Assembly (NCBI GenBank): GCA_942492955.1
Contig: OW818644.1
Coordinates: 2,436,855-2,500,854, forward strand
DNA length: 64,000 nucleotides
DNA from: an uncultured Methanomassiliicoccales archaeon
Lineage (GTDB): Archaea; Thermoplasmatota; Thermoplasmata; Methanomassiliicoccales; UBA472
Direction: 5' to 3'
Positions within the stretch are counted from its first letter, which is position 1. Each line of letters opens with the position of its first letter. Under the pieces are notes generated by a model that was given only the letters and a program-made list of their open reading frames with translations, did not search any database and was not told the DNA's origin. Shown one piece after another: positions 1,645 through 59,300 of the stretch. The position numbers and the translations under genes were made by a program.

Positions 1645-2100
1645 TCAATGGGCATGCTGACCGTGGACGGCCTCGCTGTGCTTATGCCCCTCCAACGAGC
1701 CGGAGATCATCACCGGTTCCATGTGCAGCACGCCGCGGACGCTGCCTATCTCGTCCGATAGGTGCTTTATCTCCCGCACCGTTCCCGAGACGATCAGCAC
1801 CTCGAGGCACTGGTCCAGGTTGAGGTGGACATGGATGGACGAGGAGATGTTGGTGTGATGGCCATGCTGGATGTCCATCAGTTGCTCTTTTACGCCCCCC
1901 TTGTGATGCTCGTAAATCAAGGTAAGAGTGCCGAAGATCTTGGCCTCGTCATCCTTGACGATGTCCTTGACCAATTCCTCGCGGATGAGATCCCGGATGG
2001 CCTCGGAACGCGTCGTGTACCCTTTCCCCTCGATCAGCTTGTCGAACTTCTCCAGAAGCTCCGGTTCAAGGGACACCCCGATCCTTGTCACATTTTCCAT
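1645..2100 (-). CDS. nikR: Nickel-responsive transcriptional regulator NikR (ribbon-helix-helix plus C-terminal metal-binding domain)
   Basis: Taken from ORF 1645..2286, starting at the internal Met (MENVTRIGVSLEPELLEKFDKLIEGKGYTTRSEAIRDLIRE). This gives an RHH N-terminus, the HHKGGV..HGHH..HVHL His cluster of the NikR C-domain, and a His-rich tail EGHKHSEAVHGQHAH. The upstream 62 codons of the ORF look non-coding. Confidence 0.85.
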   Translation of the reverse strand: MENVTRIGVSLEPELLEKFDKLIEGKGYTTRSEAIRDLIREELVKDIVKDDEAKIFGTLTLIYEHHKGGVKEQLMDIQHGHHTNISSSIHVHLNLDQCLEVLIVSGTVREIKHLSDEIGSVRGVLHMEPVMISGSLEGHKHSEAVHGQHAH

Positions 2101-2191
2101 GTTACTCACTAATCGAATAGTGTTACCCGCAATAATCCTTTCGTGCGTTCTATGACAGACGTGAAATAGGCCCAGTTCCTTTCCACCGGCC

Positions 2192-5244: not shown

Positions 5245-5492
5245 TACGCCTTTCGTATTAGCCTGGAAATATTAAAGCGTTGTTCAGAAACTCACGTTCT
5301 CAGAATTCATGCCAGTTCCCTTTTCGAGGTCGAAAGCAGAAAGAACTAGATCGACGACATTTCTTTGCATTTTTTCCTTGACCGGAGAACGATTTGGATC
5401 GACCGGTCTCGGCCTGTTCTGTGAAGTCATTGTTCTGCGAAATGAGGTGCGGTTTCCCTTTCCATCGTAACCTGACTCCCTTCGCCAGTAAC

Positions 5493-5525: not shown

Positions 5526-5900
5526 ATGCACGAAGTATCGGTCATGTCCGGCATCATCGATGCGGTGATGGCGGAGCTGGCGAAGCACGACGTGGAAAAG
5601 GTCGAGGAGGTCAACCTCGTCGTGGGGGAGCTGACATATCTGGGAAAAGAGCAGCTCACTTTCGCCTACGAGATCATGACCAGGGACACCGTCCTGGAAG
5701 GTTCGACGCTGGTGTTCGAGGACGAGAAGACCGAGATCTCGTGCCCAACATGCGGGTTTGAAGGGCCGGCCGATTATTATGTAGATGAGGCGTTCCATAA
5801 CAATATCCCCAAGCTCTCATGCCCAAAGTGCGGTTCCGGGGTCAAGGTGACCAAGGGCAAGAGCTGCCGGATCTCAAATATCAAGGTGGTGGAGAGATAA
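5526..5900 (+). CDS. hypA: Hydrogenase nickel-incorporation protein HypA
   Basis: Has the MHE N-terminus (Ni site) and a zinc site CPTCG...CPKCG, with an archaeal-type insertion between the CxxC pairs. The stop overlaps the hypD start (TAATG at 5898-5902). Confidence 0.9.
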   Translation: MHEVSVMSGIIDAVMAELAKHDVEKVEEVNLVVGELTYLGKEQLTFAYEIMTRDTVLEGSTLVFEDEKTEISCPTCGFEGPADYYVDEAFHNNIPKLSCPKCGSGVKVTKGKSCRISNIKVVER

Positions 5901-6970
5901 TGTTCCGATTCAGGGAAGAGGCTACGGCCAACAAGATTATCGAGAATCTGAGCAAGTACGACCTGGACCTCCAGTTCATGCATGTCTGCGGCACGCACCA
6001 GGATACGCTGGTGAAGTTCGGCTTGGAGGAGATGTTGAAGAACGTCGGCGTGCGCATCCGGCAGGGGCCGGGATGCCCGGTCTGCGTCACCACCACAAAG
6101 GAGGTCGTCGAGGCCATCACACTGGCCAAGAACGGCGTTACCATCGCGGTATTCGGGGATATGCTCACCGTACCGACGCCGATCGGGTCCCTGGCGGACG
6201 CCAAGGCAGAGGGAGCGGACGTGCGCGTCGTCTATTCGGTGGAGGATGCCCTGCGCATCGCCCCCGAGGTGAAGCAGGTGGTGTTCATGGCCATCGGGTT
6301 CGAGACCACCAGTCCCACGACGGCGTCGGTCGTATTGAACGGCGTGCCAAAGAACCTCTCTTTCCTGAGCTGCCATAGGATACTGCCGCCAGCGCTGGAC
6401 GCGCTGTTCAAGATGGGAGAGGTCCGCATCGATGGGCTGATCCAGCCTGGACATGTGGCGACGATCATCGGTACGAAGCCGTTCGAGCGGTACGCCAGGG
6501 AGATGCACGTGCCACAGGTGGTCGCCGGGTTCGAGCCTCTGGATATCTTGGTCACCGTCTTCATGATGGTCACCCAGATCCGAGAGGGCCGGGCCGAGGT
6601 GGAGAACGAATATTCTCGCGTTGTCAGGCCGGAAGGCAACCCCATCGCCATCAAGATGCTGGAGGACGTGTTCGTCCCGGTGGACAGGAACTGGCGTGGC
6701 TTCCCGGTGCTTCCGAAGAGCGCTTATGAGCTCCGCCCTGAGTTCGATGAACAGAACGCCCGGATCGTGCATGAGAAGATACTCGCTGAGGCGCCGGTGG
6801 TCAAGGAGGAAATGGGCAACTGCCGCTGCGCCGAGATGCTTCGGGGGCTGATCGAATCGAAGGAGTGCCCCGCCTTCGGCAGGGCATGCAGTCCAAAGCA
6901 CCCGATGGGTCCGTGCATGGTCTCCCGGGAAGGGGGCTGCAATATCGCCTACCGCTATCGGCAGGACTGA
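5900..6970 (+). CDS. hypD: [NiFe]-hydrogenase maturation protein HypD
   Basis: Motifs seen: CGTHQD, GPGCPVCV, GFETTSP, QPGHVA, and a C-terminal Cys cluster. I used the internal Met (MFRFREEA) of ORF 5819..6970, which is coupled to the hypA stop. Confidence 0.9.
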   Translation: MFRFREEATANKIIENLSKYDLDLQFMHVCGTHQDTLVKFGLEEMLKNVGVRIRQGPGCPVCVTTTKEVVEAITLAKNGVTIAVFGDMLTVPTPIGSLADAKAEGADVRVVYSVEDALRIAPEVKQVVFMAIGFETTSPTTASVVLNGVPKNLSFLSCHRILPPALDALFKMGEVRIDGLIQPGHVATIIGTKPFERYAREMHVPQVVAGFEPLDILVTVFMMVTQIREGRAEVENEYSRVVRPEGNPIAIKMLEDVFVPVDRNWRGFPVLPKSAYELRPEFDEQNARIVHEKILAEAPVVKEEMGNCRCAEMLRGLIESKECPAFGRACSPKHPMGPCMVSREGGCNIAYRYRQD

Positions 6971-7162
6971 GCTTCGTCAACTGCGGTCGTCGATCGGGCA
7001 TGCCGGAGCCGGCCCCTTCTCATTCCAAAGACCCTGAACATAATTCTGGTGATCAAGACGGTCTTTTCAGATACCTGAGCTACTAAGGAATTGAATCAAA
7101 AAAGGTATATCATCCCTGCCGGATACGAGACCGCTTTTATATTTAAACGCGGAGGGGTGCGA

Positions 7163-8296
7163 ATGGAGAACGAATCAAAACCTGGCGAGGCTGCGTCGGC
7201 GAAACCGATGAACGGGGCGTCCGAAGCGGAACTGAACGGCAAGGGGAAGGCGAAGGTGATATGCGTCTCCATTCCTCAGGGAAGCAACCGGCCGGTGAAA
7301 TCGTCCAGTCAAATGCCTGGGGACTTCATTCCGACGGTCTACGCCTCGACCCTATCTTGGCTCAACTGCGGGGTCGACGACCTGGAGAAGGACGGGACGG
7401 CGGTGGCCACCATGTATGGTTTCAGCGAATCGCTGGTCCCGACGCTTCTGAAAGGTTACTATGCAGCTTATGAGGACCGCGAGGTCGAGCTGGGGATCAT
7501 GGTGCCTGCGGTCCGCGTCCGCGGACTGGAGCTCAAGATATTTCCACTTCTCATCTTGGTCAAGAAGAATCTCATCCTCACCATCCACGACAGCGATGTG
7601 CAGAGGCTGGTCCAGTTCTCCCGGTATGCGGACATCTACCTGAAAAAGCTTCCCGACGTCATGCCGGCGGAGGATAAGCTCACCATGACGTTGTTCCGTA
7701 TCCTGGACGAGAACAACACCCGTAACTTCGAACAGCTCCGGGAGATAGAGGAGCAGGCGGACGAGATGAGCCAGGTCCTGGTCGACCCGAGCTCGCCCCG
7801 CACTCAGGTGGGGAAGCAGATCTATGGCATGAAGCACTCGCTGATCACTTACCTGAACACCCTCTGGCGCACGCTGGATGTGGTGAACTCGTTGCGGTAT
7901 GGGGACGCCGACACCATCACCGACAATCAGAAGGTGCTGAGCAAGATCGGTCTGCTGGCAGAAGACCTGAACCGTCAGATCTCACTGTCGGAGCACATGT
8001 CTGAGGTCCTGGCCTCCGGGCTGGAGGTGCTCCAGTCACTGTACAACAACCAGTTGCAGATCCTGAACAACCGGATGTCGCTCACGATGACCTGGCTGAC
8101 GATCCTGGGCACCGCGGTCCTGGTCCCGAACACGTTGGCCACGATATTCGGATACGCCCTTGGAGTGGACGTGCAAACGCTGGTATGGACACTGGGCGTT
8201 ATCACCATATCGACGGTGAATTCTACGCTCCTGGCATACTGGTGGGTGAAGAAGAGGGTCAACTTACCAAAGAAAGCAGACGAGTACGTCGAGTGA
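7163..8296 (+). CDS. CorA-superfamily-like membrane protein, paralog 1 (2 C-terminal TMs; canonical GMN/GxN motif absent)
   Basis: The C-terminus YNNQLQILNNRMSLTMTWLTILGTAVLVPNTLATIFGYALGVD aligns to the CorA stalk/TM1 consensus (N..M..LT....I..P.T.I.G.YGMN), but FGYAL sits where YGMN is expected. GGAGG at 7151-7155 precedes the ATG at 7163; the ORF-track TTG at 7091 is less likely. Confidence 0.65.
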   Translation: MENESKPGEAASAKPMNGASEAELNGKGKAKVICVSIPQGSNRPVKSSSQMPGDFIPTVYASTLSWLNCGVDDLEKDGTAVATMYGFSESLVPTLLKGYYAAYEDREVELGIMVPAVRVRGLELKIFPLLILVKKNLILTIHDSDVQRLVQFSRYADIYLKKLPDVMPAEDKLTMTLFRILDENNTRNFEQLREIEEQADEMSQVLVDPSSPRTQVGKQIYGMKHSLITYLNTLWRTLDVVNSLRYGDADTITDNQKVLSKIGLLAEDLNRQISLSEHMSEVLASGLEVLQSLYNNQLQILNNRMSLTMTWLTILGTAVLVPNTLATIFGYALGVDVQTLVWTLGVITISTVNSTLLAYWWVKKRVNLPKKADEYVE

Positions 8297-8314
8297 AATC
8301 GGACAAATGGAGCT

Positions 8315-9442
8315 ATGCGAATGGATGTGAACGAGATTCGGGAGTCGGTCCCCATCGGGGACGTCTGCAGGGTCTATGGCGGTCGCGCGACCCCAGGCGT
8401 TTCCACCACCGTTCTGGTCAGCATAGAGCGGTCGGGCGACATTTCCAAGCATTATGATATGGTCATATCCAAGGCGATCGAGATGGCCACCTCCGGCATC
8501 TTTTCCTGGGTGGACCATACCGCATCGGACATCGAGGACGCCGCGGAGATCGCGATGAGCTTCGGCTTCTCCAAGGCGATCATGGACTCTTTAAGGACCG
8601 ACAAGCTCTCCGAGTATGTGGACCTGGAGACGGAGCTCGGCCTGAGGATACCGTCCGTCAGGGTGGAACGGCCCGAACCAGAGATCGAACCGACCTATTT
8701 CCTCGTCCGGGACAACCTTATCCTGACCATCCATGGGGTCGCCGCGTCCCATCTGATGCAGTTCTCGCGTTACGCAGATACATACCTTAGGAAGATGCAT
8801 ACACCGATCACCTTGTCCGAGCGGAGGACCATTTTCCTGATCCGGCTCCTGGACGAGAATTGTAACGATCACTTCGATCAGCTTCGTTTCATCGAGGACC
8901 ACGCCGATGCCGTCGGATACGAGCTCTCGCAGATGAGCGTTCGCGTCAAGGACGTGGGAAGCCGGATCTTCCAGGTCAAACACACCACGATAGTGTACCT
9001 GAGCACGCTCTGGCATCTGCTGGATGTAATGAACTCGCTACGCTTCGGGGACGCCGAGCTCATCGATGACAACCAGAAGATCCTGGGGAGGCTGAACCTG
9101 ATGAGCGAGAACGTGGCCCGGCAGGTGGAATTATCGGAGAACATGTCTGAAGTGCTGGTCTCCGGTATGGATGTGTTACAGGCTCTTTATAATAACCAGT
9201 TGCTCCTGATCAATAACCGCATGGTACTGGCCCTCACCTGGATGGTTGTTCTGGGAACAGCATTGCTGGTGCCTAACACGCTTGCTACCATTTTCAGCTA
9301 TGTGATCGGGTTGGATTTCAACCTCATGGTCTGGTCTTTATCGGTCATCGTTTTGGCCACCACGACAATGACGGCTATGGTCTACTGGTGGACAAAAAGC
9401 GGGTCCGTGGTGCCCCATTCGCCGGATGAATATCTGGCATAG
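8315..9442 (+). CDS. CorA-superfamily-like membrane protein, paralog 2 (GMN/GxN motif absent)
   Basis: By eye it is about half identical to paralog 1 over the C-terminal 250 aa (RYADTYLRK..LDEN..LYNNQLLLINNRMVLALTWMVVLGTALLVPNTLATIFSYVIGLD). It starts 18 nt downstream of paralog 1, and GGAG lies upstream of the ATG. Confidence 0.65.
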   Translation: MRMDVNEIRESVPIGDVCRVYGGRATPGVSTTVLVSIERSGDISKHYDMVISKAIEMATSGIFSWVDHTASDIEDAAEIAMSFGFSKAIMDSLRTDKLSEYVDLETELGLRIPSVRVERPEPEIEPTYFLVRDNLILTIHGVAASHLMQFSRYADTYLRKMHTPITLSERRTIFLIRLLDENCNDHFDQLRFIEDHADAVGYELSQMSVRVKDVGSRIFQVKHTTIVYLSTLWHLLDVMNSLRFGDAELIDDNQKILGRLNLMSENVARQVELSENMSEVLVSGMDVLQALYNNQLLLINNRMVLALTWMVVLGTALLVPNTLATIFSYVIGLDFNLMVWSLSVIVLATTTMTAMVYWWTKSGSVVPHSPDEYLA

Positions 9443-9519
9443 TGCATTCGAAAACCTATATTAACCGACGGTTGGAATGATTTTTATCGGGTCCGGTAGA
9501 CCCTTGGAGGTATTCAGAA

Positions 9520-9963
9520 ATGGCATCACAGAAACTCAAGGATCTCATGAACAAGGGCTTAGCGGCCGAGATCCAGGCATCGATCCAATACATGTGGCAG
9601 CACGTTCAGTGGATAGGCGTCGAGCACTACGCCGTCTCTGATGAGTTCAAGACCATCGCCATCCAGGAGATGCAGCATGCGGAGAAGATCGCCGAGCGTC
9701 TATGGTATCTGGAAGGAACCCCCACCACAAAGCCCGCCCCGATACAGGTCGGAGGGGAGATGTGGGAGATGGTCGACAACGATATCGTCGCGGAGGAATT
9801 CGCCATCAATCTCTACAAGGAGATCATGGAGGTAGCGGCGAAAGAGGGCGATCCGACGACCCGTTTCATCTTCGAGCAGATCCTGGAGCAGGAGGAGGAG
9901 CATCACGACTTCTTCACCTCCCTGAAGCAGGGCCAGCCCAAGAAAGCCTCCAAGACCAAGTAA
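9520..9963 (+). CDS. Bacterioferritin-like ferritin-superfamily protein
   Basis: Di-iron ExxH motifs QEMQHAE and EQEEEHH. The E-M-x-H context matches the bacterioferritin haem-ligand Met position. GGAGGT lies 8 nt upstream of the ATG. Confidence 0.75.
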   Translation: MASQKLKDLMNKGLAAEIQASIQYMWQHVQWIGVEHYAVSDEFKTIAIQEMQHAEKIAERLWYLEGTPTTKPAPIQVGGEMWEMVDNDIVAEEFAINLYKEIMEVAAKEGDPTTRFIFEQILEQEEEHHDFFTSLKQGQPKKASKTK

Positions 9964-10136
9964 AACCGTCAAGCATGATCGAGCTTGTCGGTGTTCCGGC
10001 GCTCGTTCTCCGATTTTTGTCCAATGATCTCTCGGGAATCATGAAATGATTGCGCGTCGACACGCAGTTGTCATTCTCAGGAAAAGATGAGGCGTAGAGG
10101 GTATTATACGCTACAACCAGCTTGGTTCCATCTACC

Positions 10137-10613
10137 ATGATCAGAACCGGAGACGAGCTAGCTGAACTGTTGAAGCGGGCGCTGCAGATCGAGGATGGTT
10201 ACGAATCGGTAGGCCAGTGGGAGGCGTACGTCAAGACCAAGGACCACGGGTTCCGCCGCATGATCTTCGAGATGCTGGCGGAATCAGCCAAGCATAAAGG
10301 GATGGTCACGGACCTGCTCAAGATGGTCGATGTGTCTACAGAACGGCAGATAACTCCATTGGCGCCGACCCGCTTCGACTTCACTGGCAAAGAGCACCTG
10401 GAGGTCATGGACGAACTGTATCAGACCGAGATGTTGATGCTCGACACGTATACGCTGATCAGAGAGTCGTTGAACGGGACCGATATGGAGACGCTGCTTC
10501 TTCCTGGCCAGAAGGAATCCTTCTTGAAAATGCTGACGGAGCTCATCTCCGATGAAGGCCGACATGCGTCCATGGTCTCGACCCACCGTGGTAAGGTCGA
10601 GAGGATAAGATAG
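10137..10613 (+). CDS. Ferritin-like / rubrerythrin-like four-helix-bundle protein (uncharacterised)
   Basis: Helical protein with ESAKH and DEGRH pairs resembling ExxH di-iron ligands. I used the ATG at 10137 rather than the TTG at 10122. Confidence 0.45.
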   Translation: MIRTGDELAELLKRALQIEDGYESVGQWEAYVKTKDHGFRRMIFEMLAESAKHKGMVTDLLKMVDVSTERQITPLAPTRFDFTGKEHLEVMDELYQTEMLMLDTYTLIRESLNGTDMETLLLPGQKESFLKMLTELISDEGRHASMVSTHRGKVERIR

Positions 10614-23104: not shown

Positions 23105-24211
23105 ATGACGTCAAGAGCCGCCCTAAGGACCAGATTTGTAATCATTGGTGGGTATCTTGGGGCTGGAAAAACAACTCTGGCCACCGCGATTGGCCGGGAA
23201 TTGAAGGAAAAACACGACCTGTCAGTGGCCATCATAACAAATGACCAGGGCAACGTATTGGTTGACACCGAATTCGTCAGGAACGCAGGGTTCGACGTTA
23301 TGGATGTCATGGGAGGCTGTTTTTGCTCCAATTTCAACGATTTTGTCAAGAACGCCCGAAGCCTGGTACAAGTAGGGAAACCGGACATCATCATCGCGGA
23401 ACCGATCGGAACCTCGACGAACATCCTCGCTTCGGTCGTAGTACCAATGAGGACCATGTACCCTGAAGAATTCGAGGTGGCACCTCTTCTCGTGGTCCTC
23501 GACGGGACCAGAATAACGGAACTATTGGAAAAATCTCAGGGCTTCGGCTTGGGGTCGAGCAAGATAATTCCCGCGCATCAGCTTCATGAGGCGGAATACG
23601 TCCTGATCTCCAAGGCTGACAGAATGACCGAGGAACAGATCGATGAAGCCACCAGGAATGTGAAACTGGAAGTCCCCGAGGCCACAGTGATAGTGTTCTC
23701 TTCCAAATCCATGACCAATATGGACCAGATCATCGATGTCATTTTATCGGATAAATTGAGCGAGAAGGCGGCCGCTCCGACGGACAATCGCATGTTCGCG
23801 ATGGAGAAGGCCTCAATGGGCTGGTATAACGCCACCGCGCACCTGCATACATCTGCCCCGGTCGATCTCTATGTTTTCATCAAATCTCTCCTGACAAAGG
23901 TCTCGTCCAAATTCGGGAGCGAGGCCATCGCGCACGTCAAGGTCCTGGTCGAGTCGAGGGAAGCGGCGGTCAAGATGAGCCTGGTGATGGATTCCATTCA
24001 GACCGATGGGATAAGGGGTGGAAGATATCTCAAGAGCGATGGTAGATTGATCTTGAATGCCCGGGTCTCCGCTTCACCCAAAGATCTAAAGGACTTCTTC
24101 GAAGGCGTAGTGGCCTCAACCGCTTCGGAAATGGACGTCCAAATGGAGGGCTTCTCAGAGCTTTGCTTCTCACCGAAGCCGGAGACGCCGAGCCATCTCA
24201 TGAAAAGCTAG
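23105..24211 (+). CDS. G3E-family P-loop GTPase (CobW/HypB/UreG-like putative metallochaperone) with an uncharacterised ~190-aa C-terminal domain
   Basis: Walker A GGYLGAGKTT, IITNDQG, a Cys motif GGCFCSN where CobW has GCxCC, Walker B IIIAEPIGTS, and SKAD (NKxD-like). Confidence 0.6.
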   Translation: MTSRAALRTRFVIIGGYLGAGKTTLATAIGRELKEKHDLSVAIITNDQGNVLVDTEFVRNAGFDVMDVMGGCFCSNFNDFVKNARSLVQVGKPDIIIAEPIGTSTNILASVVVPMRTMYPEEFEVAPLLVVLDGTRITELLEKSQGFGLGSSKIIPAHQLHEAEYVLISKADRMTEEQIDEATRNVKLEVPEATVIVFSSKSMTNMDQIIDVILSDKLSEKAAAPTDNRMFAMEKASMGWYNATAHLHTSAPVDLYVFIKSLLTKVSSKFGSEAIAHVKVLVESREAAVKMSLVMDSIQTDGIRGGRYLKSDGRLILNARVSASPKDLKDFFEGVVASTASEMDVQMEGFSELCFSPKPETPSHLMKS

Positions 24212-40345: not shown

Positions 40346-40565
40346 CCAGTTCGATATCTCAAACCTTTTCTTACTCTTTTATTGAAATATTGTCTGATTC
40401 CTGCCATGTTCCTTGTTTGCAGGTTAACCATCTCAAAAAGAATGAGACTAACAAAATATGTCGGTGCTTGAAGCAACCTTGTCTATCATTGATATCATCC
40501 CTGATATCCATCAATCGATGGTTAAATAATAAATTCGGGGTTTTCCGGTCATAAAGGTGCTGTAC

Positions 40566-43500
40566 ATGTCATTGCGGAGGATTGCTCTAGGAACGGTCTT
40601 TGGAATGTTGTTCGTCGTCGCTTTCTTGATGATGACCGGAAATGCCTCAGCGGCGACCGCCCCTGTCACTATCGAAGGCAATCCGGGCATGTCTGACTAT
40701 GCAATCGCTCATTCGCTAACAGGCGATGGCAGTTTCGGGAATCCATACATCATCGATGGATTGGTCATTGACGCCCACGATGCCGACAATGGAATTGTCA
40801 TCAAGAACGTGGACGTTTACGTGATCGTTCGGAACTGCGTCATCAACAACACCCACAACTTCAACTTCAATATCGGATCCGGTGACGGGATATTCATCTC
40901 GTCCTCCAGTCACATCACTCTCAGCAACAACCATGTCAACGATACATACAACGGGATCACAATTTCCAGTTCACAGAGCATTGTAGTCTCCGGCAATACC
41001 GTTCACAATGTCACTATGGCAGGAATCAAGATCGCAGGCAGCTCGGATGTGCAGGTCACCGAGAACTTCTGCGCCGATTCACCCTCTGGCATAATTTCAA
41101 TCCAATCGACCCATGACAGCAAGTTCGACAACAACACCTGTCTTCGCGGCACCTACGGTTTCAACTTTGCTGGAAGCTACCAGAACATCCTGAGCGACAA
41201 CTACGCTTCAGACAATGTTTACGGGATCTATATCGAGGTCGGTTCATTCAGCAACAAGATCGACCTGAACAACTGCAGTTCGAATTCATATGCGGGCATA
41301 TTCGTCAAGGATGACAACAATCTCATCGCCGGCAACAAGGCATATTCTAACCTAGACAGCGGCATCCAGGTCAACGCCGCCGACAACTGCATCGTAAAGG
41401 ATAACATCTGTATCAGCAACCCCAATGGCATCTACGCGACAGGGGTTAACCATGTCACGCTGAACAACAACAACTGTTCAGGGAGCTCATCCTATGGGTT
41501 CTATGCGAACTACTGTCAGAACATCACCACCAACGACAATGTCATGTTCTTTAACTCCGTGGCGGGGATCTATCTCACTTCGTGCAAGGCCTCATACCTC
41601 TGGAACGACGTGATAGGCCAGGGCGGACAGACCGGTGTACGGATCAGCCTGTCCTCCTGGATCTATACCACTGCCCAAAGCTCATACAATGTTGCGAACG
41701 GGTTCAGCGTCGTCGACAGCGACAACTGCACGTTGGCCTCAGTGAACGCATCTCACAACGCGAACGGTGTCTCCTTTGAGAATTGCCACCTCTGCCGCGT
41801 TATCGACAGCAGCATCATGGCCAACACGGCGATTGGCATTCTGACCTTGAACTCGGACAACACCAGCATACTGAGGGTCCGCGCCTTCCTGAACTATGAA
41901 GGCTTGGATCTGTCCTATTCCGACCATGAGACCGTTTCTGACTGCCACCTCCTTGGCAATACGATCGGCATCTGGCTGATCGATGCCACCTGGGCCCAGA
42001 TAAACTACAACGAGATCAAGGACGGTGTCGGATCCGGTATGTTGTTGACCGGGCCTAGTGGATCGGACAACTGCATCATCATGGGGAACACAATATCCGG
42101 GTACCCGATGTATGGGATACAGATCCTATCATCGGAGCACACCACACTGGTATCGAACACGATAACGGAAAACAACGTCGGTGTTAGGCTAAACAGCGTC
42201 TCCAACATAAGCATAACCTCGAATTTGCTCTCCAGCAATACCAACGGATTGGTCCTCCAGTCTTCGAACGATTGTACGGTATCGTCCAATCTCTTCTCCG
42301 GCAATCTCGCCATAGGCATTTCCGCCCAGACGTGTTCAGACGGCATCCTGGTGGCGAATGTGTTCCACAATGGCCTCAAGGATATCGATTTGGTCTCATG
42401 CACCAATTTCCTCATTGATGGGAACCAGTGCGATGCCACTCAATGGGGGATCCGTTTACTGGACTGCGCCGGCATCACGATACGCAATGGCAACTGCACT
42501 GATTCCACCGGCAGCGGTGGGGCTTTCGGGATTTATGTCCAAGGAGGGGCCGGCAATATCATCCAGAACATGAACCTGACCGAATGTCTGATGGGATTGG
42601 TGCTTCAGAACACCGCATCCGACGTGGTCACCAACAACATATTCTACAGGAACATGGACACAGGCCTGACAATGTACAGCTGTACGAACGTCGTACTGCA
42701 TCACAACCTCTTCCTCTTCAACCATGGATCGACCAGCATTTATTCAGATGCATCGAACCAAGCCTACGATGACAATACGGGCATGAATCACTGGAACACC
42801 TCCGGTCCGGACGGCATCGGCAATTTCTGGTCGGACTGGTGCTATCCAGACCTCGACCGCGATGGGATCGTTGACGACCCATTGTCCATCCTCGGAGGCG
42901 GTGTTGATTACTTTCCGATCGCCGACACTGGCGCGCCTGAAGTGACCATAACCAGCCCGGGGAGCGACGGCATAGGGTTCAACACTGTCACAGTCATGTT
43001 CAGCTGGAGCGCGACGGACGATTGGTCCGGGATCCACCACTTCGAGCTCAGCATGGACAACGGTACTTGGAACAACATCGGTATCGGCAACTTCTATAGT
43101 TACGAAGACCTGATGGATGGAGAGCATTTCTTCAAGGTCAAGGCAGTGGACAAAGCAGGCAACGAGAACAACGCGAGCCGTTCGTTCTACGTCGATGTCT
43201 ACCCGCCCGTGGCTGAGATCACCTCTCCGGGAAACAACACGGTCATCAATGACGGCACCCCGACCATCGAGTGGACCGGCCAGGATGCCGGGACCGGGAT
43301 AGTCACATATATGGTCGGCTGGGACTCCGAGCCATACATAACGGTGGGGACCAATGGCTCGTTCACCTTCACCGCTCCCCTGGCGGATGGTTCCCATATC
43401 TTCTACCTGAGGGCATCGGACGGATCTGACCATATCCGAGTGTACTTCATCGAGTTCTATATCGATACCGCATTCCCCACACTGGACTCGATCTCCCCAT

Positions 43501-45188
43501 CAAACGGGACCTCAGTGGTCGTGAAGGATGTGCCCGTTACCTGGTACGCCTTCGATATGGCGAGCAGCCCCTCCGGTCTGGACCGGACGGAGGTCAGGCT
43601 CGACGCGGGAGTTTGGGTGAACAAGGGCCTGGGCTCCATGCACACGTTCCTCAATGTCACAGAAGGCTACCACACGATCTATCTCAAGACCTTCGACAAG
43701 GCTGGGAACTTAGTGGAGAAGAACGTGTCGATCATGGTCGACTATTTGGTGCCGATGGTCTCGATCACGTCGCCATCGAACCATTCGCTGTATTCGGTCA
43801 CCGGGGTGTCGATAACCTGGACCGGCTCAGACCAGGGGTCTGGAATCGACCACTATGAGGTAGGCATCGATAGTGCCCCAATGACCAGCGTTGGAACCGC
43901 TACCAGCTGGACGGCCAATTTCATGGGGGACGGCAGCCACTACATCAACGTGATGGCCGTCGACAGATCTGGAAAGGTCAGAATAGTCCACATCATCATC
44001 GTCATCGATACCCTCGCTCCGATGCTGAGCATATCCTCCCCGACCGAGGGAGGGTTCTATTCCGCACCCCAGGTCAACGTCACCTGGACAAGCATGGAAT
44101 TCGGAAGCGGGGTAGCTTCCTATGGCGTCAGGGTCGACGGCGGCATCTGGCAGTCGAGGGGGACCGCCACATATGCGCTGTTGCAGATGACCGAGGGCGC
44201 GCACACGGTCTACGTCAGAGTGACCGACCTGGCGGGCAACAGCAGGACCTCCGATGTGGGCTTCACGCTGGACCTCAACCCCCCCGTGATCCATTCCATG
44301 TCGCCATCCGATGGAGCGGTCGTGAACACCACGACCGTTGTCTTCGAATGGGATGTCAGCGATGCCATCGGAATCACATCGATAATGTACAGCATCGACT
44401 CCGAAACAGAACATGGCCTGATGGCGTCTACCACATCCCAGTCGGTGATCCTCTCGAACGGTGTCCATTCGTTCAAGTTGACCGTTCGTGACAGGGACGG
44501 CCGAGAGGCGGTCGGCTACGTCAACCTCACCGTTGACGCGGTGAAACCGACGATCGTAGCCCATACACCTGCCAACGCGAATGCCGGGGTCACCGACCTG
44601 ATCTCGTTCAGGTTCTCTGAGATCGTGAACGTGACCGGATTGTCCATCAAGGTGAACGGACAGGACGCTGGCTATGTCCTGAACGGTACGACCTATGAGG
44701 TCAGCAAGATCCTGGTGGCAGGAACAACCTATGCGGTGCAAGTGACCGGAGCGAAGGACCTCGTCGGAAATGTCATGGAAATGTACTCCTGGTCATTCAA
44801 CGTCATTTCGGGTGAACAACTGCCTGGACAAGTGGTGGTCAGCGGAACAACGGTCGATAAGAACGGTCTGTCGATCTCTGGAGCAGCCGTCGCGATCGGC
44901 GGCAAGACCACGACCACCAATGGACAAGGACAGTTCAGTTTGTATGTTGACCCAGGCCAGCATGAGCTGCGCATTACCGCCAATGGCATGAACGACCTGA
45001 TCCAGAGCGTCAACGTCACATCCAACCAGCAGTTGGGAGAGATCCTCATGACCGAGATCCCGGACAACACTGGCCAACCAGGAACAACCTCGTTCGGCGG
45101 AGACATGACCCTGTTGATGGTGATTGGCGTTCTGGCCGCCACCGTGGCGGTTGTCGCCGTGGTCGTCATGCGGAAGCGCAAGGGCTGA
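40566..45188 (+). CDS. Giant surface protein: signal peptide + parallel beta-helix (PbH1/NosD-like) repeats + ~7 Ig-like repeats + CarboxypepD_reg-like domain + C-terminal TM anchor
   Basis: Signal peptide MSLRRIALGTVFGMLFVVAFLMMTGNASA. There are dozens of ~22-aa N/G/I-rich beta-helix turns (e.g. NNHVNDTYNGITISSSQSIVVSGNTVHN). The NosD-like end is NFWSDW..DLDRDGIVDDP. Repeated ~95-aa units begin (I/V)TSP. The tail is GGDMTLLMVIGVLAATVAVVAVVVMRKRKG-stop. Confidence 0.8.
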   Translation: MSLRRIALGTVFGMLFVVAFLMMTGNASAATAPVTIEGNPGMSDYAIAHSLTGDGSFGNPYIIDGLVIDAHDADNGIVIKNVDVYVIVRNCVINNTHNFNFNIGSGDGIFISSSSHITLSNNHVNDTYNGITISSSQSIVVSGNTVHNVTMAGIKIAGSSDVQVTENFCADSPSGIISIQSTHDSKFDNNTCLRGTYGFNFAGSYQNILSDNYASDNVYGIYIEVGSFSNKIDLNNCSSNSYAGIFVKDDNNLIAGNKAYSNLDSGIQVNAADNCIVKDNICISNPNGIYATGVNHVTLNNNNCSGSSSYGFYANYCQNITTNDNVMFFNSVAGIYLTSCKASYLWNDVIGQGGQTGVRISLSSWIYTTAQSSYNVANGFSVVDSDNCTLASVNASHNANGVSFENCHLCRVIDSSIMANTAIGILTLNSDNTSILRVRAFLNYEGLDLSYSDHETVSDCHLLGNTIGIWLIDATWAQINYNEIKDGVGSGMLLTGPSGSDNCIIMGNTISGYPMYGIQILSSEHTTLVSNTITENNVGVRLNSVSNISITSNLLSSNTNGLVLQSSNDCTVSSNLFSGNLAIGISAQTCSDGILVANVFHNGLKDIDLVSCTNFLIDGNQCDATQWGIRLLDCAGITIRNGNCTDSTGSGGAFGIYVQGGAGNIIQNMNLTECLMGLVLQNTASDVVTNNIFYRNMDTGLTMYSCTNVVLHHNLFLFNHGSTSIYSDASNQAYDDNTGMNHWNTSGPDGIGNFWSDWCYPDLDRDGIVDDPLSILGGGVDYFPIADTGAPEVTITSPGSDGIGFNTVTVMFSWSATDDWSGIHHFELSMDNGTWNNIGIGNFYSYEDLMDGEHFFKVKAVDKAGNENNASRSFYVDVYPPVAEITSPGNNTVINDGTPTIEWTGQDAGTGIVTYMVGWDSEPYITVGTNGSFTFTAPLADGSHIFYLRASDGSDHIRVYFIEFYIDTAFPTLDSISPSNGTSVVVKDVPVTWYAFDMASSPSGLDRTEVRLDAGVWVNKGLGSMHTFLNVTEGYHTIYLKTFDKAGNLVEKNVSIMVDYLVPMVSITSPSNHSLYSVTGVSITWTGSDQGSGIDHYEVGIDSAPMTSVGTATSWTANFMGDGSHYINVMAVDRSGKVRIVHIIIVIDTLAPMLSISSPTEGGFYSAPQVNVTWTSMEFGSGVASYGVRVDGGIWQSRGTATYALLQMTEGAHTVYVRVTDLAGNSRTSDVGFTLDLNPPVIHSMSPSDGAVVNTTTVVFEWDVSDAIGITSIMYSIDSETEHGLMASTTSQSVILSNGVHSFKLTVRDRDGREAVGYVNLTVDAVKPTIVAHTPANANAGVTDLISFRFSEIVNVTGLSIKVNGQDAGYVLNGTTYEVSKILVAGTTYAVQVTGAKDLVGNVMEMYSWSFNVISGEQLPGQVVVSGTTVDKNGLSISGAAVAIGGKTTTTNGQGQFSLYVDPGQHELRITANGMNDLIQSVNVTSNQQLGEILMTEIPDNTGQPGTTSFGGDMTLLMVIGVLAATVAVVAVVVMRKRKG
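42931..44806 (+). repeat. Protein-level tandem array of ~7 divergent Ig-like (~95 aa) modules inside the beta-helix protein
   Basis: The recurrent pattern P..(I/S)(T/S)SP.......V.(I/V).W...D..SG(I/V)..Y.V..D........G......(L/F)..G.H...(V/L)...D.AGN was read from the translation. Confidence 0.6.
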
Positions 45189-53303: not shown

Positions 53304-56300
53304 ATGGCGGAAGATAAATTTGCGAACTTGAAGTGTACAATCCTTGTGATAATGCTGCTGATGAGCACCCTCGTCGTGGTCTCTGGCGCCGATGAGGTAT
53401 CGGCGGCCACGAGTGGGGATTACGACTTCCAGCTGATCAACGCGGACGCTGAGGTGGAGATCACCAAGTATCACGGACAGGGCGGAAACGTCGCGATACC
53501 CGGTATCATCGCTGGAAAGCCGGTCACCTCGATCGGGTCGAGCGCTATTTCAAACGATCCGAACATAATCTCCATCGTTCTGCCGACCGGTATCACGACC
53601 ATAGGTTCCTATGCGTTCTATAATTGTCCTGGCCTTCTTTCCGTGACCATCCCTTCCGGGGTGACCTCCATCGGCGTATACGCATTTGCCTCGTGCAGCG
53701 TCCTGACTTCCATAAACATTCCCTCCAGCGTCACAACGATCGGGCCGAGCGCTTTCTACTACTGTACCTCCCTGACCTCGATCGTGGTCCCAGCCAGTGT
53801 CACCACCATTGGTCTAGGTGCCTTCGCTTACTGCAGCGCCCTTCTCACGATCGACGTGGACCCGGCAAACCCGAGCTATGCCAGTGTAGGCGGGGTGCTT
53901 TACGATAAAGCATTGACGACGTTAATCCAGTATCCTGGTGGCAGGACCGCCCAGGCCGTCATCCCCGCCAGCGTCACCACCATCGGCAGCTACTCGTTCA
54001 CCTCGGCCGGCTCACTGTATTCCTTGACCATCCCCACCAGCGTCGTGACCATCGAGTCCAGCGCGTTTGCCAATTGCTACAACCTGATCTCAATAAACAT
54101 TCCCTCCAGCGTCACGACGATCGGGCAAAGCGCATTCGAGTCCTGTAGGTCGTTAGCCTACGTTACCATTCCCTCCAGCGTCACCAACATTGGATTCGAT
54201 GCATTCTCCTACTGCTCCGTGATGACCACGATCAATGTGGACCCGGCAAACCCGAACTATGCCAGCATCGACGGCATACTGTATGACAAGGCAATGACCG
54301 CCGTGATCCAATGCCCAGGCGGCTATGTGGGCACGGCCATCATTCCCGGTACGGTCACGATAATCAACGATAACGCTTTCTACGACTGCTCGTCCATGAC
54401 GGCCGTGAGCATTCCGGCCAGCGTCACCATGATCGGCGACAGCGCCTTCTATTCCTGCCAGGCACTGACGTCTTTGACGATCCCCGCCGGCGTTACCACG
54501 GTCGGCTACAACGCCTTCGCGTATTGCTCCGCATTGACCACGATGACGATCCCGTCCGGCGTTGTCTCCATCGAATCTTCCGCTTTCAGCTCCTGCCCGG
54601 CATTGACGACGATCGACGTCGACCCGGCCAATATGAACTATGCCAGCGTGGGTGGCATCCTTTACGATAAGGCGATAACCACCCTGATGCTGTGCCCAGC
54701 CGGAAAGACCGGCCCGGTCGTGATCCCAGGCACCGTTGTCTCCATCGGGAGCCACGCCTTCGATTCGTGCAAGAGCATTACCTCAGTGACCATCCCAGAT
54801 GGCACACAGACCATCGGTACCTATGCGTTCTCCTATTGCACGTCATTGACCTCAGTGACCATTCCCGCCGGCGTCCTGACCATCGCAAGCAATGCGTTCA
54901 GCTCATGCTCCGGACTGACCTCCGTGACCATCCCCGCCAGCGTCATCAGCGTGACCGCTTCTTCTTTCCAATCCTGTGCCGCCCTCACCACGATAGACGT
55001 GGACCCGGCCAATGTCAACTACGCCAGCGTCAATGGTCTGCTCTACAATAAGGCGGTCACCACGCTCATGCTCTGCCCTAATGGCAGGACCGGATCGGTG
55101 GTCGTACCCGACACAGTGACCACGATCAGCAACACCGGTTTCACCCGCTGCTCCCTGTTGACCTCGGTGACGCTCCCTGACACCGTCACCTCGATCGGAA
55201 GCTATGCCTTCTCCCAATGCGCGGGGCTCAAGTCCGTCAACATTCCTAACGGCGTGACTGCCATCCAAAACAACCTGTTCGCCTCCTGTGCCGCCCTGAC
55301 CTCGATCATCATACCCGACGGAACCACCACGATCGCGCCCAACGCGTTCTACCTATGCACCGCCTTGACATCCATATCCATACCGGCCACCGTGACCCAC
55401 GTCGGTCTCAATGCCTTCTATGGCTGTTCGGCCATGAAGACGATTAACGTCGATCCGGCCAGCATGAACTACACCAGCGTCGACGGGATGCTGTATGATA
55501 AGGCGGTCACGACCCTGATACAATGCCCAGGCGGCAGGTCCAGCCCGGTGGTCATCCCCGACACCGTGAGGACCATCGGCACCAACGCGTTCTACTATTG
55601 CACGTCCTTGACCTCGGTGACTCTTCCATCCAGTCTCACGAGCGTCGGCTCCAACGCGTTCTACCAATGTTCCGCCCTGACCTCCGTGACCGTCCCGGCC
55701 GGTGTGACAAAGATAGGCGCCTCCGCATTCTCATACTGCAATGGGCTCGCAGCGGTCGATCTGCCATCGACCCTGACGACGATCGGAGGCAGTGCCTTCC
55801 TCTCCTGCACCGCCCTGGATTCCATCTCCATCCCGGGAAGTGTCACTGCGATCGGGATGAGCGCATTCGCGTCCTGCACCGCCCTGACCGCCGTGACCAT
55901 ACCGGCGAGCGTTGTCTCCATCGGTCCAAGCGCCTTCTTCTCCTGCACCGCCATCTCGGCCATAGACGTCGACCCGGCCAATGCCAACTACGCCAGCGTC
56001 GACGGGGTGCTGTATGACAAGACCCTGACGACCGTCATCCAATGTCCGGACGGAAAGGCCGGCTCCGTGGTTCTTCCGGGAACGGTCACGACGATCGCCG
56101 ACATGGCGTTCTACTACTGCAGGTCCTTGACCTCCGTGACCATCCCCATTGGTGTGACGGTGGTGGGAAACAGCGCGTTCTATGGCGCCTCCATCACCTC
56201 CGCGACCATCCCCGCCAGCGTCACGGCCATCGCTCCCAGTGCGTTCGGTTCCTGCTATGAGCTGACCGCGTTGACGATATCCTCCGGCGTCACCGCCATC

Positions 56301-59300
56301 GGGTCTTCGGCGTTCACTTCATGCGACGGACTGACCTCCGTGAACATCCCCGCCAGCGTCACTTCCATCGGCGCCAGCGCGTTCTCTTCCTGTAATGGAC
56401 TGACCTCCGTGAACATCCCCGCCAGCGTTATATCCATGAGCAGCGGCGCATTCTATGCGTGCACCTCCCTCACCGCCATCAACGTCGATCCGGCCAATGC
56501 GTTCTATTCTTCAGTCAACGGGGTTCTTTATGACAAGGCTATCAGGACTCTGTTGCAGTGCCCGGGCGGAAAGGCCGGATCGTTGGCCATCCCGGGAACG
56601 GTGACGACCATTGCCGATGGCGGATTCTCCTATTGTTCCGCCATCACCTCCGTGACCATCCCTGAAGGGGTCGTTAACATCGGTTCGAACGCGTTCTACT
56701 CCTGTTCCGCGTTGACATCTGTGAACATCCCCGCCAGCGTCATCCTCATCGGGAGTTCGGCATTCACAGACTGCCCCTCCTTGAACGCCATCAATGTCGC
56801 CCCATCGAACGCCATGTTCGCCAGCGTTGACGGCATTCTTTATAACAAAGGGGTCACCAATCTGATGTTATGTCCGGGCGGAAAGGCTGGCTCCATTACC
56901 ATTCCCGCATCGGTCACCTCGATCGCCAACTATGCTTTCGAGTACTGTGAATCCATCACCTCCGTGACCATCCCGGCAGGGGCCATTTCGATCGGGACAT
57001 ACGCCTTCTACTCCTGTTCCGCGTTGACATCCGTGACCATCCCCGCCAGCGTCACGACCATCGGCAACTATGCATTCGGTTATTGTTCCGCCCTCACCAC
57101 CGCGGTCATTCCGGCCAACGCCAGAACATTGGGCAATAGCGTGTTCTACTACTGTTCCGCGTTGACATCCGTGACCATCCCCGCCAGCGTCACGACCATC
57201 GGCAACAATGTATTCGTCTACTGCACTTCGATGACCGCGATCAACGTCGATCCGGCCAACGCCAAATACTCCAGTCTGGACGGCGTCCTCTACGACAAGG
57301 CCAAGACCGCCGTCATCCAGTGCCCCGGCGGAAAGGCCGGGTCGCTGGTCCTCCCCGATACCGTCACCACCATCGGCACTAATGCTTTGAGATCCTGCAA
57401 CTACCTGACATCCATAAACATCCCCAACGGTGTAGCCTCCATCACAGCCAGCACCTTCTCCTACTGCCCGATCTTGAGTTCGATCAACGTCGATCCGGCC
57501 AACGCCAAATACTCCAGTCTGGACGGCGTCCTCTACGACAAGGCCAAGACCGCCGTCATCCAGTGCCCCGGCGGAAAGGCCGGGTCGCTGGTCCTCCCCG
57601 ATACCGTAACCACCATCGGCGCGAACGCCTTCTACAACTGCGTCTCCATTACCTCCGTGACCATCCCGGCAGGGGCCATTTCGATAGGGAACTACGCCTT
57701 CTACTCCTGCTCCGCGTTGACATCCATATCCATACCGGCCAGTGTCACCAGCATCGGCAGTTACGCGTTCTACAATTGTTACTCCTTGACCGCCGTGACC
57801 ATCCCCGATGGCGTCACATCCATCGCCAACAGTGTATTCTATTCCTGTTCCGCGTTGACATCCGTATCAATACCGGCCAGCGTCACGACCATCGGCAGCT
57901 ACGCGTTCTACAATTGCTACTCATTGAACGCCGTTACCATCCCCGCCAGCGTCACCAGCATCGGCAGCTACGCGTTCTACTCCTGTTCTGGCCTTACATC
58001 CATGACGATCCCGTCGGGCGTCGTTGCCATCGGCCTCAGCGCTTTCTATTATTGCCCCGGCCTGACCGCGATACACGTGGATCCAGCCAACACCAAATAT
58101 GCCAGCGTCGACGGGGTGCTCTACGACAAGGCGATCACGAACCTGATCCAATGTCCTGGCGGCAGGACCGGACAGGTCGTCATTCCCGATACCGTCACCA
58201 CCATCGGACCAAATTCTTTCTATTACTGCTATAGCCTGACCTCGGTGACCTTGCCTTCCAGCCTGAAGAACATAGGGGCAAACGCGTTCTACTACTGTTA
58301 CGCCCTTAACTCGGTGATCATCCCGGAAGGAACGCTCACCATCGGCACCTACGCGTTCGGCTCTTGTGAATTGCTCACCGAGGTCTCGATCCCGGCAAGC
58401 GTGGAGTCGATAGGCTCCTCGGCCTTCTACTCCTGCACCTCCCTCACCGCGATCAATGTCGATCCGGCTAACGTCCACTATGCCAGCGTCGACGGGGTGC
58501 TCTACGACAAGGCGATCACCACCCTGATCCTGTGCCCTTCCGGCAAGACCGGTCCATTCGCCGTTCCAGGAACGGTCACCTCCATCGGCACCTACGCGTT
58601 CTATTACTGTTCCGGCCTGACCTCGGTGACCCTGCCGGCGGGTCTTACCAGCATCGGCAGCTACGCGTTCTATTACTGTTCCGGCCTGACCGCGCTGAAT
58701 ATCCCGGCCAGTGTGACATCCATGGGCTCTTTGGCGATCTACTATTGTTCCGCCCTCACCGCGATCAATGTCGATCCGGCTAACGTCCACTATGCCAGCG
58801 TCGACGGGGTGCTCTACGACAAGGCGATCACCACCCTGATCCAGTGCCCTTCCGGCAAGACCGGTTCTCTCGTTATCCCAGGCACCGTCACCATCATCGG
58901 GAGCAATGCGGTGTCCAGCTGCCGGTTCCTTACCTCGGTGACCATCCCCGCCAGCGTCACGACGATCGGCAGCTACGCGTTCTACTCCTGTTCCGCGTTG
59001 GCATCGGTGACGATACCTGCCAATCTGACCTCCATCGGCAGCTACGCGTTCTCCTATTGTACGGCACTCACATCGATCAACGTCGATCCGGCGAACACCA
59101 ATTATGCCAGCGTGGACGGCATCCTGTACAACAAGGATATTACCACGCTGATCCAGTGCCCCAGCGGCAGGTCCGGTTCCGTGATCATCCCGGGAACGGT
59201 CACCACCGTCGGAGCGAACGCGTTCTCCTATTGTTACGCCCTCACCGCCGTGACGATACCGTCCAGCGTAACCAAGATAGACAACGAGGCGTTCTACTAT

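Follow-up and report, generated by a model that had tools for sequence, protein, structure and literature searches.

A window of 64,000 nucleotides from an uncultured Methanomassiliicoccales archaeon (contig OW818644.1, positions 2,436,855 to 2,500,854 of the forward strand; "the window" below is this whole stretch, numbered from its first letter) carries two adjacent, co-oriented genes, P1 (copy a) and P2 (copy b). Their products are members of the CorA/MIT superfamily by hidden Markov model (HMM) and by fold, and both are missing Gly-x-Asn (GxN), the motif from which the "2-TM-GxN" family takes its name. Both carry an invariant Asn within the first transmembrane helix (TM1), in a short "PNT" motif shared by a large archaeal branch, referred to here as the PNT branch. 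The features of the locus are collected in Table 1.

The open frame of P1 in the translated window opens further upstream, at TTG 7091; the start was placed at the ATG at 7163 because the orthologs are 377 amino acids (aa) long and GGAGGGG precedes that ATG. The two proteins are 44% identical across 349 residues (E 2e-106), in agreement with a preliminary description of this DNA, which had called the adjacent pair about half identical by eye. The spacer between the genes is too short for a promoter, so P1 and P2 were taken to be co-transcribed. The nearest public contigs are soil and peat metagenome-assembled genomes (MAGs), with protein identities of 90-98%. An Rfam scan of the window gave no match.

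Table 1. Coordinates of the CorA-like pair, its pore elements, promoter elements and neighbouring genes in the window
Feature	Position	Strand	Description
P1 (copy a)	7163..8296	+	CorA-fold subunit of the PNT branch; 377 aa from ATG; in all related lineages
P2 (copy b)	8315..9442	+	Tandem paralog of P1, faster-evolving; 375 aa
P1-P2 spacer	8297..8314	+	18 nt; GGAG 4 nt ahead of the P2 ATG
P1 stalk insertion, S292-L298	8036..8056	+	SLYNNQL, 7 residues; a 7-column template gap in hhalign, without counterpart in canonical CorAs
P1 pore helix TM1, N302-A332	8066..8158	+	hhalign register; columns 125/125 at most positions
P1 N323 codon	8129..8131	+	Invariant Asn of PNT, at the TmCorA T305 position
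G-M-N replacement in P1, G330-Y331-A332	8150..8158	+	phmmer, hhalign, column counts, translation
P2 N321 codon	9275..9277	+	Equivalent of P1 N323; P1-P2 alignment, columns, translation
G-M-N replacement in P2, S328-Y329-V330	9296..9304	+	P1-P2 alignment, column counts, translation
Conserved promoter/operator block upstream of P1	7099..7159	+	~60 bp; contains AAAAAAGGTATATCA; imperfect palindrome GTAT-N14-ATAC; GGAGGGG before ATG
TATA-like element of the P1 block	7135-7147	+	TTTTATATTTAAA
GTAAC-N16-GTAAC site 1	2101-2126	-	Abuts the nikR start codon
GTAAC-N16-GTAAC site 2	5467-5492	+	34 nt upstream of hypA
nikR	1645-2100	-	Pfam/NCBIfam
hypA	5526-5900	+	Pfam/NCBIfam; hypD directly after
hypD	~5900-6970	+	Pfam/NCBIfam
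Ferritin-domain gene	9520..9963	+	Pfam Ferritin, 96.7 bits
Conserved 163-aa open reading frame	10122..10613 (alternative start 10137)	+	Without Pfam match

The CorA-type stalk and the two C-terminal transmembrane helices recognized in the preliminary description are confirmed by profile, model and structure comparison. P1 matches the Pfam CorA profile PF01544 along its full length, at 83.5 bits (cut-off 27) and profile positions 4-292 of 292, while P2 finds no Pfam match at E≤0.1. A PF01544 match is precomputed for most P2 orthologs, and P2 counts as a homolog of CorA-fold P1 despite its low HMM score because of their sequence identity. Against TIGR00383, the CorA equivalog model, P1 scores 44.5 and P2 30.2 bits, both below the cut-off of 200.75. 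An AlphaFold model of P1, with 142 relatives as input, has a pLDDT (predicted local distance difference test) of 80.5 and consists of an alpha/beta N-domain, a 77-residue helix (256-332) that joins stalk and TM1, a loop (333-336) and TM2 (337-365). Foldseek matches this model to the TmCorA and MjCorA structures with probability 1.00 and TM-scores of 0.6-0.73. The TmCorA pore-lining positions kept in P1 point to a pentamer in which TM1 would line the central pore.

In the GxN family, Gly-x-Asn ends TM1, with Met, Val or Ile as x; MPEL is the second loop motif of CorA proper, lost already in distant GxN members. Where canonical proteins read YGMN, P1 reads F329-G330-Y331-A332 and P2 reads F327-S328-Y329-V330, in pairwise alignment, profile-profile alignment and translation alike. 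In phmmer alignments to MjCorA (4ev6/4cy4), TM1 is ungapped and the query ...TIFG lies on ...GIYG; TM1 is also ungapped in an hhalign comparison of the 142 relatives with 15 GMN-bearing CorAs (probability 99.9%, E 5.5e-35). BLAST against a more distant homolog, P0215, opened a 1-residue gap, which the profile alignment settled as ungapped. A GxN hidden by a mis-registered alignment is ruled out, since the pairwise, profile-profile and regular-expression checks agree. The absence of GxN/GMN, read as FGYA and FSYV in the preliminary description, therefore stands: neither P1 nor P2 ends TM1 with Gly-x-Asn, and at the site two residues past the Gly, Asn is missing from all 238 branch members. MPEL is absent as well; the P1 loop, of about 4 residues, runs L-G-V-D straight into TM2. 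P1 and P2 thus fail the feature that names the family.

Conservation was measured in an alignment of 142 sequences, of which 125 are of the a type and 17 of the b type. TM1 is the best-conserved segment of the protein: residues 302-330 of P1 are nearly invariant in both paralog groups, and R304, M305, W311, G316, T317, L320, V321, P322, N323, T324, A326 and T327 are identical in all 142 sequences. By contrast, the column of the GMN Asn, position 332, holds hydrophobic residues that vary from sequence to sequence (V50, L29, A22, M14, I6). A survey of orthologs for the F(G/S)Y replacement, proposed earlier as a check, shows that it is kept: the Gly is retained in the P1 lineage, the next residue is F, Y or S, and the Asn column varies as described. 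Canonical CorA is most conserved at its loop motif, whereas in the PNT branch conservation has moved into TM1.

The hhalign register pairs P1 with TmCorA residue by residue (M309 with M291, L312 with L294, T313 with T295, T317 with T299, L320 with M302, N323 with T305, G330 with G312 and A332 with N314), so that, apart from the mouth, the pore lining of TmCorA has counterparts in P1: the equivalents of M291, L294, T295, T299 and M302 are kept, and that of T305 is Asn, not Thr, in all branch members. T305 is the lone polar pore-facing residue of TmCorA; according to Nordin et al. (2013, PMC3629940), transport is inhibited in T305L, and T305S no longer transports Co2+. The loop holds a single conserved feature, an acidic residue (D/E) at position 336, present in 100/125 a-type and 17/17 b-type sequences, and a basic KKR follows TM2; judged from the sequence, both would suit a cation channel. 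Within the stalk insertion, Y294 and N295 are at least 90% conserved and N296, Q297 and L298 are invariant, and the insertion puts N295-N296 one heptad ahead of N302-N303.

A pore mouth without the GxN Asn, combined with a TM1 Asn, is not an oddity of one genome; it marks a large, archaea-wide clade. A search of a 5.8-billion-protein collection returned 2,067 homologs of P1 at E≤1e-3, and a library clustered at 50% returned 187 representatives at the same threshold; judged by sequence, the branch is compact and lies well apart from mainstream CorA. Full-length sequences were assigned to the PNT type if TM1 ends with PNT[LIVM][AGS]T..(G/S/A), which gave 238 PNT-type and 137 canonical GxN sequences among those collected. 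Asn occupies the position seven residues before the Gly in 238/238 PNT-type sequences, while Thr or Ser occupies it in 131/137 GxN-type sequences. In this sample the TM1 Asn and the loop GxN are almost perfectly anti-correlated. The PNT type persists down to 22-29% identity, and its carriers include Thermoplasmatota, Methanoperedens, Methanoregulaceae, Micrarchaeota, Parvarchaeota, Bathyarchaeota, Nitrososphaerota and marine Tara samples. Source names seen for the branch are "CorA family divalent cation transporter", "magnesium transporter" or "hypothetical protein". The preliminary description had recognized the loss of the motif and had overlooked both the archaea-wide branch and its invariant, possibly compensating, TM1 Asn.

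Two sequences stand between the types. The metagenomic P0323 has the TM1 Asn and GMN together (..VVPNVVGGFFGMNVPG..), the sole sequence of this kind, and looks like an intermediate. P0215 (locus L023, 6001-7032) resembles the PNT branch in its cytoplasmic motifs (29% identity, E 7e-43), yet its YGMN is intact; it has Gly at the T305 position, a longer loop and one close relative only. Both keep GxN, unlike the PNT branch, and their sequences would allow evolutionary intermediates or a domain chimera. A search of open-access full-text literature for Asn-less CorA homologs found no report, only plant AMN/AIN variants.

The PNT branch shares its fold and its stalk-TM1-loop-TM2 layout with TmCorA and MjCorA (PDB 4i0u, 3jcf, 4ev6), as well as the M291/L294 gate, the T295/T299 ladder, the mouth Gly and the basic C-terminus. 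It differs in the T305 position, which has become an invariant Asn, in the 7-residue YNNQL stalk insertion, in G-F/Y/S-V/A/L for GMN, in the lack of MPEL and in a loop of about 4 residues; sequence identity is 15-19%. Tripeptides that depart from GMN occur elsewhere in the superfamily, in ZntB (GVN/GIN) and in plant MGT proteins (AMN/AIN). Passages in the literature on these proteins associate such divergent tripeptides with altered ion preference or mechanism (PMC5670123; PMC9276622; PMC6345045). The described natural variants that were found (GVN, GIN, AMN and AIN) all keep the Asn, whereas the PNT branch loses it in 238/238 sequences.

Copy b is a duplicate confined to one sublineage. P2 has about 26 close orthologs, after which the next matches in the list are P1 orthologs. 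Two tandem copies occur in 12 loci, where P2 always lies immediately downstream of P1 with a gap of 18-90 nt. In neighbour-joining trees, the only kind built, the b copies are monophyletic (57/60 bootstraps), and with corrected distances their sister group consists of the a copies from the same two-copy genomes (35/60 bootstraps); a first tree, from uncorrected BLOSUM distances, had put the b clade outside all a-type sequences. Since the b copies form one clade that is sister, with moderate support, to those a copies, a single duplication inside the lineage with the hyp/ferritin gene context is indicated. The view of P2 as a very recent duplicate was revised, as the b clade includes members just 40-43% identical to P2.

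Both copies are under purifying selection. In unsaturated comparisons the ratio of nonsynonymous to synonymous substitution rates (dN/dS) is 0.03-0.07 for copy a and 0.07-0.12 for copy b, so that copy b evolves about twice as fast as copy a; values of 0.03-0.12 in both genes rule out a pseudogene or a decaying copy. At the Gly-ring position 330 the b group has S7/G5/A5, with Ser in P2, and the gate residues of b copies are altered (M309 to L/F, L312 to M), while the N, T and G of the polar ladder are kept.

The surroundings of the CorA-like gene were compared across 104 loci and fall into a few contexts. In 49/104 loci the gene lies between a threonyl-tRNA synthetase (ThrRS) gene on the minus strand and an ACT-domain gene followed by a minus-strand winged helix-turn-helix (wHTH) gene, behind a QueD-QueC-QueE block. 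In 27/104 loci, as in the window, the order is hypA-hypD, one or two CorA-like copies, a ferritin gene (with or without the 163-aa open reading frame (ORF) and ABC genes) and a DEAD helicase gene. The gene stands between argininosuccinate lyase (ASL) and a PD40 gene in 16/104 loci (Methanoperedens type), and 12/104 loci have other contexts. In non-methanogen Thermoplasmatota (some 40 metagenome loci besides L008-L010, L016, L020-L022, L024 and L025), a small ACT gene of like orientation comes after the CorA-like gene, and a divergent wHTH/MarR-type gene after that, a very consistent pairing.

The 27 hyp/ferritin loci are all apparently of the Methanomassiliicoccales type (the named ones are), with P1 identities of 59-98%. 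Ferritin directly follows the CorA-like gene or genes in 23/25 of those with enough sequence, and this adjacency also holds in 13 single-copy loci at 59-65% identity, so it predates the duplication. Adjacency alone is no proof of coupling, because that lineage conserves the gene order of the entire hyp-to-DEAD block. Several related MAG loci (L003, L007, L011, L017 and L019) have frameshifted hypD, CorA-like, nth or DEAD genes, seen as tblastn matches split across frames. Errors of long-read assembly are the most likely cause, more so than pseudogenes.

Within the window, the neighbours named in the preliminary description hold for nikR, hypA-hypD and the ferritin gene, all with Pfam or NCBIfam matches, and its label of a second ferritin-like gene stays unproven. 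That gene, the conserved 163-aa ORF, gives sub-threshold matches to EncB-type encapsulin cargo (E 0.005 in NCBIfam, 0.16-0.21 in PDB), has the invariant residues E24, E28, E34, Y36, E54, H58, E94, E98, E103, E145 and H148, and varies in presence among syntenic loci; it possibly encodes a ferritin-like helical bundle. nikR lies 5 kb from the pair, behind a QueC-like gene, folC and nth. The spacer between hypD and P1 is 192 nt long and has promoter elements of its own, so hypA-hypD forms a separate upstream transcription unit. At its longest, the hypD ORF begins at 5819 and shares 82 nt with hypA; its real start is likely at about 5900. No hypB, hypC, hypE or hypF lies near hypA-hypD; a CobW/HypB/UreG-family GTPase gene lies far off, at 23105-24211. 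Among the large membrane ORFs scanned in the window there is no MgtE, canonical CorA or Ni/Co importer.

The promoter block of P1 is conserved in the window and in five other loci (L001-L004 and L019), while the DNA upstream of it has diverged; its TATA element is also found in L005 and L006. The palindrome in the block lies between two TATA-like elements, and the block may be an operator for some regulator. The ferritin-domain gene has its own TATA-like element, at 9455-9464. A hairpin-capable sequence, GGGTCCGGTAGACCC, lies at 9489-9503, between that element and the GGAGGT and ATG of the gene.

A different element connects nikR with hypA. GTAAC-N16-GTAAC, a direct repeat in a 21-bp register, occurs exactly only twice in the window, both times in the orientation of the gene beside it, and is a candidate NikR operator that would link nikR autoregulation with hypA. 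In the promoter of the pair it is absent even at one mismatch, and an 8-mer scan for an operator shared by the hypA, nikR and P1 spacers gave chance matches only. The operator-like repeat is thus common to nikR and hypA, and the P1 promoter is without it. Outside the window, exact copies at these promoters are limited to the closest relatives, with both sites in L001 and the nikR site alone in L003; L091 supplies the single further exact match, which stands isolated. Alignment of hypA promoters shows that the TATA-proximal AGTAAC is invariant and that the distal half drifts.

Considered together, P1 and P2 probably serve as active subunits of gated, pentameric cation channels with a remodelled outer filter. 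In such a channel the Asn ring of the loop GxN is lost along with MPEL, and the TM1-TM2 loop is cut to about 4 residues, while a new invariant Asn ring (P1 N323, P2 N321) would take the place of TmCorA Thr305, some two helical turns deeper than the mouth. There N323 would line the pore and stand in for the lost GxN Asn. The channel would keep a ring of Gly carbonyls at G330, a Thr ladder and a hydrophobic Met/Leu gate, together with a long stalk, a cytoplasmic domain for regulation and a basic C-terminus. Gating would be expected as in CorA, where cytoplasmic Mg2+ controls Mg2+/Co2+/Ni2+ transport, with a cytoplasmic divalent-cation sensor that closes the hydrophobic gate. PNT proteins would then conduct divalent cations, and P2 would either join P1 in heteropentamers, changing the Gly ring to Ser/Ala, or form a second channel with shifted properties. 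As a default, uptake of Mg2+-class divalent cations may be assumed for the family, because in most lineages the gene is single-copy, strongly constrained and set in housekeeping contexts.

Several points weigh against this reading. GxN is treated as the selectivity filter and signature of the family (PMC6972854; PMC9276622), and because it is the presumed filter, a protein that lacks it may be unable to conduct Mg2+. That N323 would face the pore is deduced from homology mapping and helical periodicity. The argument from housekeeping contexts would weaken if these genomes had a canonical CorA or MgtE as well, and the conserved adjacency to ferritin in one lineage hints at another metal.

The preliminary description had left open whether these proteins are channels with altered selectivity, with Ni, Co or Fe suggested by the neighbourhood, or CorA-fold proteins repurposed as sensors. 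The channel alternative agrees with the retained pore positions and with TM1 as the most conserved segment. A membrane-anchored, non-conducting metal sensor or regulator, which would have lost its pore function along with GMN, could account for the disappearance of a motif deemed essential and for P2 falling under the CorA model thresholds. It is nevertheless very improbable: across over 140 sequences the pore-lining polar and gate positions are invariant or nearly so and the loop is variable, the reverse of the pattern expected from a dead pore; dN/dS is low in both copies; and the proteins have no output domain and no partner gene that consistently adjoins them across lineages. Strong purifying selection and the conservation of TM1 argue for channel subunits rather than sensors. 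That the filter selects Fe2+ (or Ni2+/Co2+) in Methanomassiliicoccales, feeding the adjacent ferritin and indirectly hydrogenase maturation, would fit hypA-hypD upstream and ferritin directly downstream at widely differing P1 identities, with ferritin kept although the b copy, the ABC genes and the 163-aa ORF come and go. The T305 position also tunes Co2+ versus Mg2+ preference in TmCorA (PMC3629940), and the CorA family carries Mg2+, Co2+, Ni2+ and Zn2+ with overlapping specificity (PMC6972854). Yet a transition-metal channel of this kind seems unlikely, since the context is lineage-specific, the 49 ThrRS/ACT/wHTH and 16 ASL/PD40 loci have no metal genes, and the pore residues are identical across all context classes. 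The pair and ferritin each have promoter elements of their own, the repeat of nikR and hypA is missing at the pair's promoter, and, given synteny from hyp to DEAD helicase, adjacency by itself is not a demonstration of coupling. The neighbourhood argument for Ni, Co or Fe is accordingly not well supported: the link to Ni is weak, and that to Fe is a lineage-specific hint.

A further possibility concerns P2, and would add to the account of P1 and P2 as gated channel subunits rather than replace it. P2 might be an obligate modulatory subunit that works only in heteropentamers with P1, an arrangement that would resemble Lpe10 with Mrs2 in yeast. The yeast pairs Mrs2/Lpe10 and Alr1/Alr2 are eukaryotic, their genes are unlinked, and GMN is kept in both. 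Like P1 and P2, they represent two CorA-family paralogs per organism; unlike them, P1 and P2 are tandem and apparently co-transcribed. According to passages on the yeast proteins, one paralog of each pair modulates the channel of the other (PMC6972854; Sponder et al. 2010, cited in PMC9276622). A modulatory role would agree with the invariable place of P2 directly downstream of P1, with its faster evolution, with the loss of the Gly ring to S/A in most orthologs, and with changed gate residues beside a kept N, T and G; assembly into homo- or hetero-pentamers is described for the CorA family (PMC6972854), and co-assembly of P1 and P2 is plausible because they are co-transcribed and have long been retained together. 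Nevertheless, the CorA architecture of P2 is complete and would allow it to form homopentamers, so that an obligate modulatory role is conceivable but somewhat doubtful. Held with little confidence is a bolder version, in which the PNT branch would be a distinct channel family whose filter consists of the TM1 Asn and Gly carbonyl rings and whose substrate would not be Mg2+ but, for example, Fe2+, another transition metal or a differently hydrated cation. The P1 and P2 of Methanomassiliicoccales might then form a heteropentamer of fixed stoichiometry, in which a mixed Gly/Ser ring would tune selectivity and which would feed ferritin.

The PNT branch is a large and strongly conserved archaeal clade in which the whole CorA machine is kept except the motif that names the CorA/ZntB/Mrs2/Alr group, and the Asn that might compensate sits at a pore position where mutagenesis tunes ion preference. 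It amounts to a natural experiment on ion selection and dehydration in CorA, and on whether GxN is truly indispensable. The tandem pair offers a tractable case for heteromeric CorA channels. Because the CorA/Mg label is presumed, metabolic reconstructions may be wrong about metal homeostasis in uncultured archaea such as Thermoplasmatota, Methanomassiliicoccales and Methanoperedens.

Elsewhere in the window, GC skew is strongly negative across 54-60 kb. Two very large ORFs on the plus strand, at 40557-45188 (1543 aa) and 53304-61970 (2888 aa), have N-terminal hydrophobic segments, and their products are probably secreted or surface proteins.

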